From NCBI GenBank assembly GCA_963731635.1, contig CAVSWB010000001.1:73679-137678 (forward strand): a DNA stretch of 64,000 nt. The letters run 5' to 3'. Positions 1,618 through 8,746 of this stretch are shown here, in pieces (the stretch's first letter is position 1; every line of letters begins with the position of its first letter). Made by a program: the position numbers and the translations under genes. The notes beneath the pieces are model-generated. The model had not been told where the DNA came from. It did not search any database and saw only the letters and a program-made list of their open reading frames with translations. This stretch comes from an uncultured Chloroflexia bacterium (GTDB lineage Bacteria; Chloroflexota; Limnocylindria; Limnocylindrales; CSP1-4).

Positions 1618-2247
1618 ATGTTCAACAGATCCAGTAGAACCACGCTGGGCGCCTTGGCGCTGGCAATGTTGTCAATCGTCGCCGTTGGCTGCTCCGGCAG
1701 CTCTTCCAACTCCCCATTGAGTGGTGGCGGCTTGGATACTTCCCAGCCCCCGGATGCCGGCGTGCTCGGTTCGACCGCGACGCCTGCCGGATCCCCCGGA
1801 GTAGTCACCGGCCACGTCGGAGACAAGCTGACCGTCATCATGCTCGGCGGCGCCAAGGCGGATCTCACGCTCGTCAAAGTGGCAGACCCCCCGACGCTCT
1901 CCGACGCCACAGACGCCGCCCCTGCCGGGGCCCGTTGGGTTGGACTCGAGGTCACGGCCGTCGATCACTCGCCCTTTGCCGCTCAGGAGCAGGTCCTCGT
2001 AGACGGGATCGGGTCCGACGGCAAGATCCTGACCACGGACGCCAAATTCGCGGGCTTCTCCCACGAGATAGGCGCGTTTGCCGAGTGCACGTGGACAGGC
2101 TCGATAGGCCCGGATAAGTCTTACACGATGTGCCCTGCGTTTCTGCTACCCACCGGCGTGACTCTCAAGAGCGTCGGCGCCAAGGTCGGGGGTGCGGAGA
2201 TCGGCGAAACCACGGCGGTGGATCAGGCCGTTTGGATGATCCCATAG
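1618..2247 (+). CDS. Secreted lipoprotein, unknown function (possibly DUF4352-like beta-sandwich)
   Basis: GAGGA RBS precedes the ATG at 1618. Signal peptide MFNRSSRTTLGALALAMLSIVAVGC has a lipobox Cys. The ORF track start at 1564 is less likely. Confidence 0.65.
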   Translation: MFNRSSRTTLGALALAMLSIVAVGCSGSSSNSPLSGGGLDTSQPPDAGVLGSTATPAGSPGVVTGHVGDKLTVIMLGGAKADLTLVKVADPPTLSDATDAAPAGARWVGLEVTAVDHSPFAAQEQVLVDGIGSDGKILTTDAKFAGFSHEIGAFAECTWTGSIGPDKSYTMCPAFLLPTGVTLKSVGAKVGGAEIGETTAVDQAVWMIP

Positions 2248-2390
2248 ACGGTCGGAGCCGCTCCAAGGGCGATCCGCACAGCCGACCTGTCAACCAGCGG
2301 CATGCGTCTGCCGGCGGCGTGTGAACCCGCCCTGTCGCGGAGGTCCGTCCCGTGCCCTCTCCGGCTGCGGCGTCCTTCGCTGGATCCCGG

Positions 2391-2906
2391 TCAGCAGTCG
2401 AAGGCGAGCCAGCACAGCTCGTTTCGCAGCTGCTGGTCGTCGAGCACGAGGGCGCGGATCTCGTCGGGCAGCTGGTCGCGCTGCCACCTGCATTCTCGGC
2501 GACCTGCCCCTTCACGCTCGTCTTCGCTGGCGGCCGCGCGAACTGCCTTGATCGCGTAGGCCGCGGCACCGAGTTCGTGAGCGGCTACATGACCCACAGC
2601 CGCGGCCTGGCCGGCAGCGTACGCGGCGTTCCGTGCCGCCCCAGTCAGGTCTCTGGCCGCCGCGTTGGCGTGGCCGCCCGCCGCGCGCGCGTCCCACCAC
2701 GTGATTTCGCCGCGCGCCCAGGCACGCCCAAGATCGATCGCTCGACGTGGACGGTCGTCCCCCGGCCGCGCCCGCTCGAAAAAGTCCAGCACGTGCTCCG
2801 CGCAATCGGCCGCCCAGACCGCCAGAAGGTGGTGATCGTCGTCCAGGAGGCTGCCGCCCCGACGGACGGTGATGAATCGCGGATCCCGGACTTTGGGGAG
2901 AATCAT
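2391..2906 (-). CDS. All-alpha hypothetical protein resembling the actinobacterial 'putative immunity protein' (Imm5-like) family
   Basis: Internal Met (MILPKVRDPRF...) was chosen because the ORF's upstream extension runs through the non-coding 17-bp repeat array. Ala-rich helical repeats (AAGGHANAAARDLTGAARNAAYAAGQAAAVGHVAAHELGAAAYAIKAV) are typical of that family, from memory. Confidence 0.5.
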   Translation of the reverse strand: MILPKVRDPRFITVRRGGSLLDDDHHLLAVWAADCAEHVLDFFERARPGDDRPRRAIDLGRAWARGEITWWDARAAGGHANAAARDLTGAARNAAYAAGQAAAVGHVAAHELGAAAYAIKAVRAAASEDEREGAGRRECRWQRDQLPDEIRALVLDDQQLRNELCWLAFDC

Positions 2907-2928
2907 TCGCGCCCCCTTGGTCGGTCGA

Positions 2929-3012
2929 TCGTCGGCCACAGCCCCGAGTCGGCTACAGCCCCGAGTCGGCTCCAGCCCCGAGTCGGCAACAGCCCCGAGT
3001 CGGCAACAGCCG
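2929..3012. repeat. Tandem array of a 17-bp unit CAGCCCCGAGTCGGCNN: four full copies (2939-3006) plus partial copies at both ends
   Basis: Read directly from the sequence. Copies lie at 2939-2955, 2956-2972, 2973-2989 and 2990-3006. Each contains the palindrome CCGAnTCGG. The period is not a multiple of 3, and the array sits between divergent genes. Confidence 0.9.
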
Positions 3013-3050
3013 TGCCTATTGTCACCTGGGGCGGCGCGACCTGGCCACTG

Positions 3051-3078
3051 TTGACAGGACGCAGCATCGCGATATATC
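3051..3078 (+). promoter_or_regulatory. Candidate sigma-70-type promoter of the padR-like gene
   Basis: TTGACA at 3051-3056, a 16-nt spacer, then TATATC at 3073-3078. It lies in a locally AT-richer patch about 45 nt upstream of the GTG start. Confidence 0.5.
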
Positions 3079-3123
3079 GTGACGGTGCGCAACATAGCGC
3101 AGCACAACTCAGGAGAGACTAGC

Positions 3124-3831
3124 GTGTTTCATCAGGACAATGGGCGGGGACAAGCCAGAGGCTGGCCGGGCCGCCCAGCAGATTCACCGATCGGGGCAGT
3201 CGGCTTCCGACATCACCACACGGACGAAGAGCGCGGCCCCGGCTTTCGCGGTCCCTGGGGCCCGCACGAAGGCGGTCACGCACATGGACGCGGCGGCCGC
3301 GGCCAGGGTTGGATTCCCAGGGACTTTGGTTTCGGTGCCGGGCGCGGGCCGATGGTGCGCCGCGGCGACGTTCGAACGGCCATCCTGACCCTGCTCGCCG
3401 AAGAGCCGATGCACGGATATCAGATGATCCAGCGGCTCGGCGAGCGCAGCGGGGGCATGTGGCGCCCGAGCGCCGGTTCCGTCTATCCCACCCTCCAGCA
3501 GCTCGAGGACGAGGGGCTGGTCAAAGGCGAGGAGCGCGATGGACGAAAGGTCTTCGCGCTGACCGACGAAGGCCGAAACGTCGCCCGGCAATCCGCCGGC
3601 AGTCCGGCACCGTGGGAGATGCCCGGCGCTGAGGAAACGACGGGTCTGTACGGACAGTTCCGGCCGCTCGCCGCCGCCGTGGCACAGGTATCGCGGGTCG
3701 GTAGTTCCGAGACGCTGGCGAAGGCTCAGGCGATCCTCATGGAGGCGCGGCGATCGCTCTACCGGCTGCTCGCCGAGGACCCCGAACAGGACCCGCCGGC
3801 CGCCGAGCAAGACCGCACGACGGCTCGGTAG
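3124..3831 (+). CDS. PadR-family transcriptional regulator with Gly/His/Arg-rich N-terminal extension
   Basis: Winged-helix core VRTAILTLLAEEPMHGYQMIQRLGERSGGMWRPSAGSVYPTLQQLEDEGLV is the PadR signature. AGGAGAG RBS lies 7 nt before the GTG at 3124. The alternative start at 3079 is possible. Confidence 0.85.
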   Translation: MFHQDNGRGQARGWPGRPADSPIGAVGFRHHHTDEERGPGFRGPWGPHEGGHAHGRGGRGQGWIPRDFGFGAGRGPMVRRGDVRTAILTLLAEEPMHGYQMIQRLGERSGGMWRPSAGSVYPTLQQLEDEGLVKGEERDGRKVFALTDEGRNVARQSAGSPAPWEMPGAEETTGLYGQFRPLAAAVAQVSRVGSSETLAKAQAILMEARRSLYRLLAEDPEQDPPAAEQDRTTAR

Positions 3832-3966
3832 CCGCGCGCCCCAGGCCGCGACCGGCGGAATGCCCGAGCTGAAGCTCGATCCGCCCGGTCGCGGCCTTTC
3901 GAGCTCTTGGTCCGGGAAGGCGTGAGTCATCAAGACCGCGGCACGGGCCGCCCCTCGCACCAGGCA

Positions 3967-3994
3967 TTGCATCGGCTATACGTATATGTATACT
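3967..3994 (+). promoter_or_regulatory. Candidate promoter plus near-palindromic operator upstream of the EXLDI/ABC genes
   Basis: TTGCAT at 3967-3972, a 16-nt spacer, then TATACT at 3989-3994. The 16-bp near-palindrome TATACGTATATGTATA (3977-3992) pairs at 7 of 8 positions. It is also readable as three tandem hexamers, CTATAC-GTATAT-GTATAC. It overlaps the spacer and the -10 element. Confidence 0.5.
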
Positions 3995-4036
3995 GGCACC
4001 GTTACGACTCCGAACACTGGGAGTTAGGATGCTCAG

Positions 4037-4555
4037 GTGCCGAACAAGACGATCTACGTTTCAGATGGCGATCTACCGCTCTACCAGCGGGCTCAGGAGG
4101 TTGCGGGCGGCAACCTCTCTTCCGCCATCACGGCAGCGTTGCGACGCTACGTGGACGCGGAGGAAGGCCGCCTCGAGGGTTTCAAGGAGATCGTCGTTCG
4201 GGTCGGGCCGAAGGGCGACCGCAAGAAGCGCTTCAGCGGCCGGTTACTTGGCGAGTGGGGCAACTCGACCAATAGCCGGATGGAGATGTACCGGGTCTAC
4301 GGAACTCGCTCCGGCAAATTCGTCCTGCACGTCGACAAATCTCCGGAGTGGGCCGGGCGCGACGCGGACGGAAATCCCGCCGGCTTCCGCAGCTGGCTCG
4401 GCCTGGGCAATTACAGCTGGACCTTCTCGTCGGGCGAGTCGACCCTCGAGATCTTCGAATCTGTCGAGCAGATGCGCGACAAGATCCCTCCCCAGCTCTA
4501 CGACATGGTCGTCGGGGCGGTCAGCGAGCCCACAGTCGAAGACCTCGACATCTAG
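4037..4555 (+). CDS. EXLDI-family protein (uncharacterised; C-terminus ...VEDLDI)
   Basis: About 170 aa, ending in E-D-L-D-I. This matches the named 'EXLDI protein' family, which I recall as TIGR04342 (unverified). It sits immediately upstream of an ABC transporter pair. The N-terminus KTIYVSDGDLPLYQRAQEVAGGNLSSAITAALRRYV looks ribbon-helix-helix-like. Confidence 0.75.
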   Translation: MPNKTIYVSDGDLPLYQRAQEVAGGNLSSAITAALRRYVDAEEGRLEGFKEIVVRVGPKGDRKKRFSGRLLGEWGNSTNSRMEMYRVYGTRSGKFVLHVDKSPEWAGRDADGNPAGFRSWLGLGNYSWTFSSGESTLEIFESVEQMRDKIPPQLYDMVVGAVSEPTVEDLDI

Positions 4556-4702
4556 CCCGCGCGCCGGACCCGCTCCGGGCGCCTGAGGCTGCGGCGGCGC
4601 GCCGACACCGATCACGAACAGATCCACGCGAAATCGGGCATCCCTGTAGGGCCGCCACCGGCCTTGCCATGCCCGCTAAGTAAGAGAAGCAAGGAAAAGA
4701 CC

Positions 4703-5695
4703 ATGGCGAACAACCGCTCCCCCGCCGCGATCCAGGTACGCGGATTGCGCAAGTCCTACGGCAGCCAGGTTGTGCTGGACGGCATCGACTTCGACGTAGC
4801 CCAGGGCACCGTCTTCTCGATGCTCGGCCCGAACGGCGCGGGCAAGACGACCATCGTCCAGATCCTGTCGACCCTCATTTCCGCGGACGGCGGGCAGGTC
4901 CTCGTCGGCGGCCACGATTTGAGCCGCGAGCCCGACGGCGTTCGATCGGCGATCGGCGTCACAGGCCAGTTCTCGGCGGTGGACAAGTTCCTCACCGGCG
5001 AGGAGAACCTGGTCCTGATGGCCGACCTGCGTCACATGGGCAAGAGCGCCGGGCGCCGCCGTGCGGCCGAGCTGCTCGATCAATTCGACCTGGCCGAGGC
5101 CGCCCATAAGCCCGTCGCCACGTTCTCCGGCGGGATGCAGCGACGCCTGGACCTGGCCATGACCCTCGTCGGCGACCCGCGGATCATCTTCCTCGACGAG
5201 CCGACCGCCGGCCTCGACCCGCGCAGCCGCCGGACGATGTGGCAGATCGTCCGCAGCCTTGTCGCGAGCGGAGTCACGATCTTTCTCACGACGCAGTACC
5301 TCGAAGAGGCCGATGAACTTGCCGACCGGATCGCCGTGCTCGACCGTGGCCGGCTCGTCGCCCAGGGCACGGCAGCCGAGCTAAAACGGCTCGTGCCCGG
5401 CGGCCACGTCAGCCTGCAATTCGGCGACGCCATCCTGCTCGAGCGAGCGGCTCGGCTGCTGGAGCCTGCCTCGCGGGACGACTACGCCCTGACCCTCCAG
5501 CTTCCCGGACATGGCGACGTTCGATCGCTGCGCTCCGTGCTCGACCGCCTGGATGGCGCCGGCATCGAAGTAGACGGACTGACGATCCACACGCCCGACC
5601 TCGACGACGTCTTCCTCTCCCTCACGGGCCAGGAAACCCGGTCCGAAGCCCTTTCCGAAACTCACCCCGAAGTCGAGGAGGCGATTTCCCGATGA
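4703..5695 (+). CDS. ABC transporter ATP-binding protein (DrrA/daunorubicin-resistance-like)
   Basis: Walker A GPNGAGKTT, ABC signature FSGGMQRRL, Walker B IIFLDEPTAGLD. AAGGAAAAG RBS precedes the ATG at 4703. The 3' end overlaps the permease start by 4 nt. Confidence 0.9.
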   Translation: MANNRSPAAIQVRGLRKSYGSQVVLDGIDFDVAQGTVFSMLGPNGAGKTTIVQILSTLISADGGQVLVGGHDLSREPDGVRSAIGVTGQFSAVDKFLTGEENLVLMADLRHMGKSAGRRRAAELLDQFDLAEAAHKPVATFSGGMQRRLDLAMTLVGDPRIIFLDEPTAGLDPRSRRTMWQIVRSLVASGVTIFLTTQYLEEADELADRIAVLDRGRLVAQGTAAELKRLVPGGHVSLQFGDAILLERAARLLEPASRDDYALTLQLPGHGDVRSLRSVLDRLDGAGIEVDGLTIHTPDLDDVFLSLTGQETRSEALSETHPEVEEAISR

Positions 5696-6516
5696 ACGCG
5701 CTTGCCTACACCATGAGCGACTCCGCAACGATGCTGCGCCGGCAGCTGCGCCACATGCTGCGCTACCCATCCCTGAGCGTGCTCGTGGTCGGGATGCCGG
5801 TGATCTTCCTTCTTCTGTTCGTCTTCGTCTTCGGCGGAACGCTGGGTTCGGGCCTTGGCCCGGCCGGCGCGGCGGGCGTGTCCGGTGCCGTTGCCGCGTC
5901 CGGCGGCCGGTCCGCCTACCTCGAGTACGTGGTTCCGGGAATCCTGGTCATGACGATCGCTGCCGTCGTTCAGGGAACGGCGATCTCGGTTGCGATGGAC
6001 ATGACCGGCGGCATCGTCGCGCGCTTCCGGACCATGTCCATCTCCCGGGCCTCCGTGCTGACGGGCCACGTGCTCGGGAGCATGGTCCAGGCCTTCCTGG
6101 CGATCGGCCTCGTGCTCGTCGTGGCAGTTCTCATCGGCTTCCGGCCGAGCGCCTCGCCGACGGAGTGGCTCGGCGTGATCGGCCTTCTGGCGATAGCCTC
6201 GTTCGCGCTGATCTGGCTGTGCGTGGCGCTCGGGATGGTGACCGACGGCGTCGAGACAGCCAGCAACATCCCGATGCCGCTGGTCCTTCTACCGTTCCTC
6301 GGCAGCGGCTTCGTTCCCACTGACTCCATGCCCGGGCCGCTGCGCCTCTTCGCCGAGTATCAGCCGTTCACGCCGATCATCGAAACCCTGCGCGGCCTGC
6401 TCACGGGCACGTCGTTCGGCAACGAGGGAATCATGGCGGTGGCGTGGTGCGTGGTCATCGCCGCGCTGTCGTACGTCTGGTCGATGAGGCTTTACGAGAA
6501 GCATTCCGTGCATTGA
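5692..6516 (+). CDS. ABC-2 type transporter permease (DrrB-like)
   Basis: Six hydrophobic segments, ATGA start/stop overlap with the ATPase gene, and typical ABC-2 length. Confidence 0.85.
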   Translation: MNALAYTMSDSATMLRRQLRHMLRYPSLSVLVVGMPVIFLLLFVFVFGGTLGSGLGPAGAAGVSGAVAASGGRSAYLEYVVPGILVMTIAAVVQGTAISVAMDMTGGIVARFRTMSISRASVLTGHVLGSMVQAFLAIGLVLVVAVLIGFRPSASPTEWLGVIGLLAIASFALIWLCVALGMVTDGVETASNIPMPLVLLPFLGSGFVPTDSMPGPLRLFAEYQPFTPIIETLRGLLTGTSFGNEGIMAVAWCVVIAALSYVWSMRLYEKHSVH

Positions 6517-8682: not shown

Positions 8683-8746
8683 TTGACAGCGTCTTGGTTC
8701 CGATGTAGATATATCCATGCACCAGATGTATTCATACTGGACGCAT
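8683..8746 (+). promoter_or_regulatory. Candidate promoter and operator of the arsR-led sulfur/Hdr-like operon
   Basis: TTGACA at 8683-8688, a 17-nt spacer, then TAGATA at 8706-8711, inside an AT-rich island. An imperfect inverted repeat follows directly: ATGCACCAG (8717-8725), 11 nt, CTGGACGCAT (8737-8746). Confidence 0.5.

Follow-up and report, generated by a model that had tools for sequence, protein, structure and literature searches.

The closest experimentally studied analogue that we found for the regulator discussed here appears to be TrcR (All0854) of Anabaena PCC 7120, a ribbon-helix-helix (RHH) protein experimentally shown to repress its own gene (PMC10272220). The TrcR motif (ATACTACACTTGTATTAC) overlaps both the −10 box (TACACT) and the transcription start of this gene, and the regulon, to which an efflux (DMT) operon and an ABC ATPase belong, was described by the authors as the multi-gene translational-stress regulon of a cyanobacteria-restricted factor (PMC10272220). 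Here, we analyzed a 64-kb stretch of DNA (68% GC; hereafter the window, with positions counted from its first nucleotide) from a Chloroflexota metagenome-assembled genome (MAG), in which a gene for an EXLDI-family protein is preceded by an operator-like palindrome and followed by ABC exporter genes. The EXLDI family (TIGR04342) has a name but no assigned function, and a literature search retrieved no paper on EXLDI as a protein family, in line with an earlier note on this DNA that had called its role next to ABC exporters undescribed. We propose that EXLDI, and not the PadR-family regulator encoded next to it, likely acts as a one-component autorepressor of its own promoter and of the three-gene export cassette exldi-drrA-drrB. 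Both DNA binding and the sign of regulation are what we infer from sequence comparisons and structure models.

Operator-like boxes upstream of EXLDI genes

Four co-directional genes were found head to tail within positions 3124–6516, where the earlier note had placed them: a PadR-family regulator (3124–3831), the EXLDI gene (4037–4555), a DrrA-type ABC ATPase (4703–5695) and an ABC-2 type permease (5692–6516), all on the + strand. The 205-bp gap between the PadR stop and the EXLDI start (3832–4036) contains a promoter on the same strand (3967–3994), with the −35 hexamer TTGCAT (3967–3972), a 16-nt spacer and the −10 hexamer TATACT (3989–3994), and, overlapping it as the note had described, the strandless candidate operator TATACGTATATGTATA (3977–3992). 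This near-palindrome is indeed the joint most AT-rich 16-mer of the window and the only AT-rich 16-mer there with at least 7/8 palindromic pairs. Its two adjacent palindromic boxes, TACGTA (3979–3984) and TATGTA (3985–3990), fill the spacer and overlap the −10 box. One detail had to be corrected: only two of the three GTATAY hexamers claimed are on the + strand, and the hexamer register is better read as TATACG / TATATG / TATACT. The −35 hexamer matches the consensus at only 3/6 positions, which explains why a generic promoter scanner missed the site. Transcription would be expected to start near position 4001.

We compared the window with 80 related loci from two phyla, Chloroflexota and Actinomycetota, the latter represented by genera including Nonomuraea, Streptosporangium, Glycomyces, Kribbella, Actinoplanes, Micromonospora and Microlunatus; the loci closest to the window carry Chloroflexi or Chloroflexia labels. 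Within the 100 nt upstream of the 80 EXLDI genes (8 kb in total), we counted 161 copies of TAYRTA (20.1 per kb), against 24 in the other 792 kb of the same loci (0.030 per kb); this ∼670-fold enrichment upstream is well beyond chance. TACGTA-type boxes were present in all 80 upstream regions, with successive boxes 6, 12 or 13 bp apart; that is, the operator-like palindrome over the promoter is conserved in every related locus. Position-weight alignment revealed a fixed layout with a TTGnnn −35 hexamer, a first box (TATACGTA) that runs on into the −10 hexamer (variants TAGACT, TATACT and TATAGT) and a second box over the expected transcription start. Adjacent boxes that fill the spacer and the −10 were seen in the clade of the window as well as in Glycomyces, Kribbella, Actinoplanes and Nocardia. 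Several relatives have leaderless promoters, in which the −10 lies seven nt before the ATG and a box abuts the ATG.

The boxes were also kept in eight loci without DrrAB; the locus L009 has an exporter of the major facilitator superfamily (MFS) 3′ of EXLDI instead, and L076 a Spo0M gene. They were likewise present in L015 and its relatives, where EXLDI and DrrA are separated by a DUF1707/LiaF-like gene. Since the boxes persist without the pump and change with the strand residues of EXLDI, as described below, the predicted operator goes with the EXLDI gene and not with PadR or the pump. In the window's own assembly (3.25 Mb), which holds one EXLDI gene (TIGR04342, 95.5 bits in a genome search), the exact 10-mer TATACGTATA occurs once, at this promoter. 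A search for a wider regulon revealed no further double boxes in this 69%-complete assembly.

A predicted DNA-binding head

The EXLDI gene starts with GTG and encodes 172 amino acids (aa) ending in VEDLDI. Its first 48 residues (MPNKTIYVSDGDLPLYQRAQEVAGGNLSSAITAALRRYV...; 4037–4180, + strand) lie outside the TIGR04342 model, which covers residues 49–172 only, and show the highest conservation within the protein (mean column identity of 81% versus 53% for the whole protein), with P2–V8 invariant in 62 sequences. The RHH-like pattern that the earlier note had read from this segment was supported by structure models and profile comparisons. In a single-sequence AlphaFold model, a strand (residues 5–8) is followed by two helices (13–23 and 27–42), and a model based on the 62-sequence alignment, with a mean predicted local distance difference test (pLDDT) score of 83, has helices at residues 10–22 and 27–46 with an extended segment before them. 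The turn G24-G25-N26-L27-S28 is nearly invariant, giving a strand-helix-helix arrangement with a G-x-S/T/N turn. Using hhalign, a profile of 38 N-termini aligned in register with CopG over 39 columns (P = 1.1e-4, probability 57%), pairing TIYVSD with TITLSE, GGNLSSAITAAL with G-LSKSAMISVAL and GGNLSSAITAALRRY with G-LSKSAMISVALENY; the same comparison with Arc was not significant. Pfam matches of the 38 N-termini, all below threshold, were mostly to RHH families, namely CcdA (18), VapB (10), DUF6290 (4), RHH_1 (2) and PSK_trans_fac (2). Given the secondary-structure pattern, the GGNLS turn, the hhalign result and these sub-threshold matches within the RHH clan, the prediction of a CopG-like RHH fold for residues 1–48 is well supported but not proven.

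Co-variation of boxes and strand residues

A second EXLDI subfamily (type 2) was identified in five Microbacteriaceae loci, namely a Leifsonia plasmid and four metagenomic loci. Its N-terminal strand reads M-[APV]-[TS]-[RK]-N-[VI]-Y-V, compared with M-P-N-K-T-I-Y-V in type 1; positions 3 and 5 change between the types, and positions 3, 5 and 7 would face the DNA according to the CopG alignment. The type-2 boxes read ATGYRCAT: ATGNNCAT was present in 5/5 type-2 loci and TAYRTA in 0/5, whereas TAYRTA was found in 82/82 type-1 loci, over the −10 box or the transcription start, and ATGNNCAT in 2/82. The layout is the same as in type 1, with a leaderless promoter whose −10 (TATAGT or CATACT) is flanked by two 8-mers at a distance of 12 bp from each other. 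The box changes symmetrically from ATACGTAT to ATGCGCAT, which is what a symmetric dimer would predict. Across these loci, the box sequence co-varies with the strand residues, and no other observation argues as strongly for the boxes being read by the EXLDI head rather than by an unlinked factor.

Several observations weigh against a repressor that reads its own operator. The co-variation is in effect one evolutionary event, because there is a single second subfamily with five related loci. A divergent paralogue in L076, with the strand EKTITI, still has TATACGTA upstream, so the strand-to-box code is not simple. The 6-bp spacing of the boxes in the clade of the window leaves little room for two RHH dimers. 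Residues 1–9 are coil in the alignment-based monomer model, although an extended or coil segment is what should be expected of an RHH monomer model, and none of the 38 N-termini matched a Pfam RHH model at threshold (best E 0.005–0.1). Finally, the sequence was found in DNA metagenome runs only, and no RNA-seq run contained it.

The sub-threshold RHH assignment and the TATACGTA box retained by the L076 paralogue despite its changed strand would also fit a scenario in which an unlinked regulator binds the TACGTA boxes, or the boxes are an AT-rich promoter feature, and the EXLDI head has an antitoxin-like or protein-interaction role. We consider this improbable, as the boxes track the EXLDI gene in two phyla whatever flanks it, including loci without a pump, and become ATGYRCAT exactly in the subfamily with differing strand residues. 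No toxin-like partner gene is conserved, and the assembly contains only one exact site, which speaks against a global regulator. Separately, a defence or toxin-antitoxin function of EXLDI was rejected, based on the lack of a PADLOC match for EXLDI and of a conserved partner toxin.

The C-terminal domain, the tail and the EXLDI family

Family membership, as proposed in the earlier note, was confirmed by a TIGR04342 match of 95 bits against a cut-off of 32 (E = 3.9e-27), in which residues 49–172 (4181–4555, + strand) aligned to model positions 1–124, and by the VEDLDI end, which carries the C-terminal E-x-L-D-I motif. AlphaFold predicted residues 50–163 with high confidence (pLDDT ∼90) as a beta-rich domain with short helices. 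Foldseek searches gave a best E of 0.077 against the PDB and of 1.3e-3 against BFVD, the latter for an unnamed protein; matches to Pur-alpha structures in the PDB had a target-normalized TM-score of ∼0.5 but only ∼0.25 on the query, and profile searches of PDB sequences with the EXLDI domain returned noise only. As none of these Foldseek and profile searches gave a significant match, a fold assignment of the domain was rejected. The domain presumably senses the signal or binds a partner, and EXLDI is a probable RHH one-component repressor with a novel sensor domain.

In the 62 sequences, the tail residues D169, L170 and D171 never vary and I172 shows a conservation of at least 90%. The fact that V-E-D-L-D-I is predicted to be disordered yet invariant suggests a docking or self-association peptide. 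A refinement of the autorepressor model would be flux sensing, in which the EDLDI tail of the repressor docks on the ATPase or another partner and pump activity or proteolysis controls repression. A disordered tail (pLDDT <50) with three invariant residues is typical of a docking peptide, and EXLDI is tightly linked to the DrrA-type ATPase. However, the tail is equally conserved in members without an ABC transporter nearby (type 2, L009 and L076), which makes a transporter-specific partner unlikely and fits better with self-association or a universal partner. We therefore give flux sensing little weight.

A library-wide search for the EXLDI domain returned ∼200 clusters at 50% identity, mostly from Actinomycetota and Chloroflexota. 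In most of them the domain starts at residue ∼49, so that the predicted RHH head would be fused to it, and a minority have an unrelated N-terminal extension or none. Mis-called starts probably account for some of the 'short' forms, and many family members of 122–124 aa may be such start-codon artefacts. On the plasmid of Leifsonia sp. ZF2019 (NZ_CP065038.1; L086 4001–4522), for example, the RefSeq start of EXLDI is an internal Met (locus position 4148, 124 aa), and the 49 codons omitted upstream encode the predicted RHH head and begin inside the promoter palindrome. In L004 (5001–5552; G007:C17:775555–776074), EXLDI is frameshifted into two tblastn pieces and the EDLDI end is lost, which reflects either a pseudogene or a long-read assembly error.

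We also noted an out-of-frame ATG at position 4029 of the window, 8 nt 5′ of the EXLDI GTG and with GGGAG 5 nt upstream (4019–4586). It opens a 185-codon +1 open reading frame (ORF) that extends to 4586 and covers the whole EXLDI gene. A functional overlapping frame was rejected, since chance alone accounts for the absence of stops (synonymous-shuffle P = 0.21; P = 0.27–0.80 in six relatives with an open +1 frame). The +1 and +2 frames are both stop-free in ∼17 of 81 loci, and the arrangement GGAG(G)TTAnGATG recurs in Glycomyces loci, where the frame is closed by one to three stops.

Exporter genes and cassette boundaries

Similarity to the four closest relatives (L001–L004; 78–88% nucleotide identity by blastn) begins at 3955 or 3977 and ends at 6511 or 6516, that is, it spans from just 5′ of the −35 hexamer to the permease stop. 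Both flanks are unrelated in these comparisons, and no further similarity was found within the first 12 kb of the window. Globally, a same-strand DrrA homologue lies directly 3′ of EXLDI in 72 of the 80 loci and a DrrB-like permease is present in 71. Judged by blastn and synteny, the real unit is thus a cassette of operator, EXLDI, ATPase and permease at ∼3955–6516 (+ strand).

The ATPase (4703–5695, + strand; longest ORF from TTG 4664) starts at ATG 4703, which is preceded by AAGGAAAAG. It matched the drrA model TIGR01188 over its full length with 322.2 bits (cut-off 312.45), placing it in the DrrA subfamily; it further matched PF00005 (104.7 bits), and its DrrA1-3_C domain scored 22.8 bits, below the cut-off of 27.4. 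The permease (5692–6516, + strand) is an ABC-2 type protein (PF01061, 77.9 bits versus a cut-off of 26.9) that is only DrrB-like, with 47 bits against the drrB model TIGR01247 (cut-off 223). Translational coupling to the ATPase gene is suggested by a 4-nt overlap (ATGA) between the ATPase stop and the permease start. Among the PADLOC defence models, neither EXLDI nor the permease had a match and the ATPase had only generic ABC/AAA matches. The 147-nt gap between EXLDI and DrrA had a fold z-score of −0.19, with no terminator and no second operator found in it, and an RNA structure or attenuator there was rejected on the basis of this z-score and the lack of a terminator.

The association with exporters is recurrent (DrrAB-like, sometimes MFS) and in places includes further genes. 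In some actinomycete loci, such as L012, L015, L019 and L028 (about 5480–6200), EXLDI is followed by a DUF1707 (SHOCT-like)/LiaF-like_C gene before DrrA; L076 (4141–4947) is a further locus of this group. L017 has one beta-lactamase-family-like insert (1687–3291), in which an SVTK motif was seen by eye. These associations hint at a role in antibiotic or cell-envelope stress. We further noted two clearly different permease lineages paired with EXLDI proteins of similar divergence (53–59%), with a DrrB identity of ∼30% in Streptosporangiales versus ∼55–60% in Glycomyces and Chloroflexota; the EXLDI regulator may have recombined with different ABC-2 pumps. A complete cassette of EXLDI, DrrA and ABC-2 permease was also present in Nocardia farcinica NCTC11134 (L087 3440–6000), behind a leaderless promoter bearing CTACGTATACATCTACATATAGT. 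The record concerned, NZ_LN868939.1, is labelled 'plasmid 2', yet is 2.66 Mb long with only two annotated features.

PadR and its surroundings

The earlier note had included PadR in the module and read the palindrome as a PadR site. PadR-family proteins are known repressors of efflux pumps, as exemplified by LmrR, and the PadR gene of the window (3124–3831, + strand; longest ORF from 3079; PF03551, 80.1 bits versus a cut-off of 27) is adjacent to and co-directional with EXLDI. PadR could thus bind the palindrome and repress the EXLDI-ABC operon, with EXLDI as an accessory protein. Boxes of PadR proteins typically have the layout ATGT-N8-ACAT, however, which this operator lacks. Searches for PadR near EXLDI gave 0/80 loci with tblastn and 1/80 with phmmer, a weak match (L071, E = 0.003); PadR is therefore missing beside EXLDI in 79/80 loci, all of which have the operator. 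Of the synteny expected by the note, only the link to the DrrAB-like exporter was upheld. The closest relatives, L001–L004, share the operator but not PadR, homology starting 3′ of the PadR gene. Among 18 genomes of other species of the same genus, five have an EXLDI gene and six a PadR orthologue, and where both occur they are on different contigs, never adjacent. Furthermore, a GC-rich, terminator-like hairpin 3′ of the PadR stop (3843–3897, + strand; 13-nt perfect arms and a 29-nt loop, then TTTCG) separates PadR from the EXLDI promoter and lies outside the block conserved with relatives, and PadR has a promoter-like site of its own (TTGACA-18-TATCGT at 3051–3080).

Control of the operon by PadR is therefore highly improbable. 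Because it is absent beside EXLDI in nearly all loci, precedes the start of homology and occurs independently of EXLDI within the genus, PadR falls outside the module, and its membership was rejected by tblastn, phmmer, the blastn boundaries and the same-genus survey alike. By its distribution, PadR is an unrelated bystander and a neighbour by accident.

Just upstream of PadR, and close to its promoter-like site at 3051–3080, lies a gene for an Imm-5-like putative immunity protein (2391–3107, − strand; PF21805, 129 bits); the true partner or target of this PadR may be found near it. Elsewhere in the window, ATGTAGATATATCCATGCACCAGATGTATTCATACT (8703–8740), among the most AT-rich 30-mers of the window, precedes an ArsR-family regulator gene (PF01022; 8857–9273) by ∼120 nt and is possibly its promoter or operator.

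Proposed mechanism and implications

In the autorepressor model, EXLDI would consist of a CopG/Arc-type RHH head (residues 1–48), a beta-rich domain (49–163) and a flexible, invariant EDLDI tail (164–172). RHH dimers would insert their paired N-terminal strands, with N3, T5 and Y7 toward the DNA, into the palindromic TACGTA-type boxes, which fill the −35/−10 spacer and overlap the −10 hexamer or, in other lineages, bracket the −10 and cover the transcription start. EXLDI bound there would bar RNA polymerase from the promoter, and exldi-drrA-drrB would be repressed. Boxes so placed speak for repression and not for activation, and with the repressor encoded by the first cistron, the operon would be under negative autoregulation. 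A signal received through the C-terminal domain, most likely the substrate of the pump or an envelope or antibiotic stress, would release the protein from DNA and switch the pump on.

A more far-reaching proposal is that EXLDI represents an unrecognised cross-phylum class of one-component regulators, spread as a portable mobile cassette, whose RHH head has a readable strand-to-box code (N-x-T-x-Y with ATACGTAT, T-x-N-x-Y with ATGCGCAT), whose sensor fold is absent from the PDB and whose tail docks on a universal partner, be it a protease, RNA polymerase or another EXLDI subunit. Under this proposal, induction would occur by regulated sequestration or degradation and not by simple ligand release. 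We regard this combination as unlikely.

With the autorepressor model, the named but function-less family TIGR04342 gains a testable role in the control of export operons, for which both the operator and the contact residues are predicted, and a sensor domain without a structural relative is flagged. The cassette, a compact pairing of regulator and pump, is also sharply bounded and patchily distributed within a genus, a pattern that bears on the spread of exporter-based resistance or self-protection modules. Finally, our data correct an annotation habit, as the predicted DNA-binding head is missing from the family model and from at least one RefSeq gene call.

Comparison with known systems

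Like CopG (pMV158), Arc and Mnt, EXLDI would combine a strand-helix-helix fold and a G-x-S turn, in register with CopG in the case of the EXLDI head, with short palindromic boxes over the −10 of its own promoter and with autorepression, which for EXLDI we infer. These classical proteins are 45–83 aa long, lack a sensor domain and control plasmid copy number or phage lysogeny, whereas EXLDI adds a 124-aa domain with the EDLDI tail and is predicted to control a chromosomal exporter operon. NikR similarly joins an RHH head to a C-terminal signal-binding domain and has its operator over the promoter of an ABC transporter (nikABCDE, nickel). In NikR, however, the C-terminal part is an ACT-like domain for tetramerisation and metal binding, and the protein is encoded apart from the importer that it controls, while the EXLDI domain has no significant match in the PDB and EXLDI is the first gene of the exporter operon that it apparently controls. 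Pairs such as TetR/TetA, LmrR/LmrCD and those of the DrrAB type resemble the cassette in having a dedicated repressor beside a pump, presumably released by the substrate, and the EXLDI pump is itself a DrrA/DrrB-like ABC-2 exporter. The regulators of such pairs are helix-turn-helix proteins encoded divergently; EXLDI is a predicted RHH protein with an unrelated sensor, encoded as the first cistron. In its layout, the TrcR site closely resembles the EXLDI operators (ATAC...−10...GTAT), a functional and architectural likeness.

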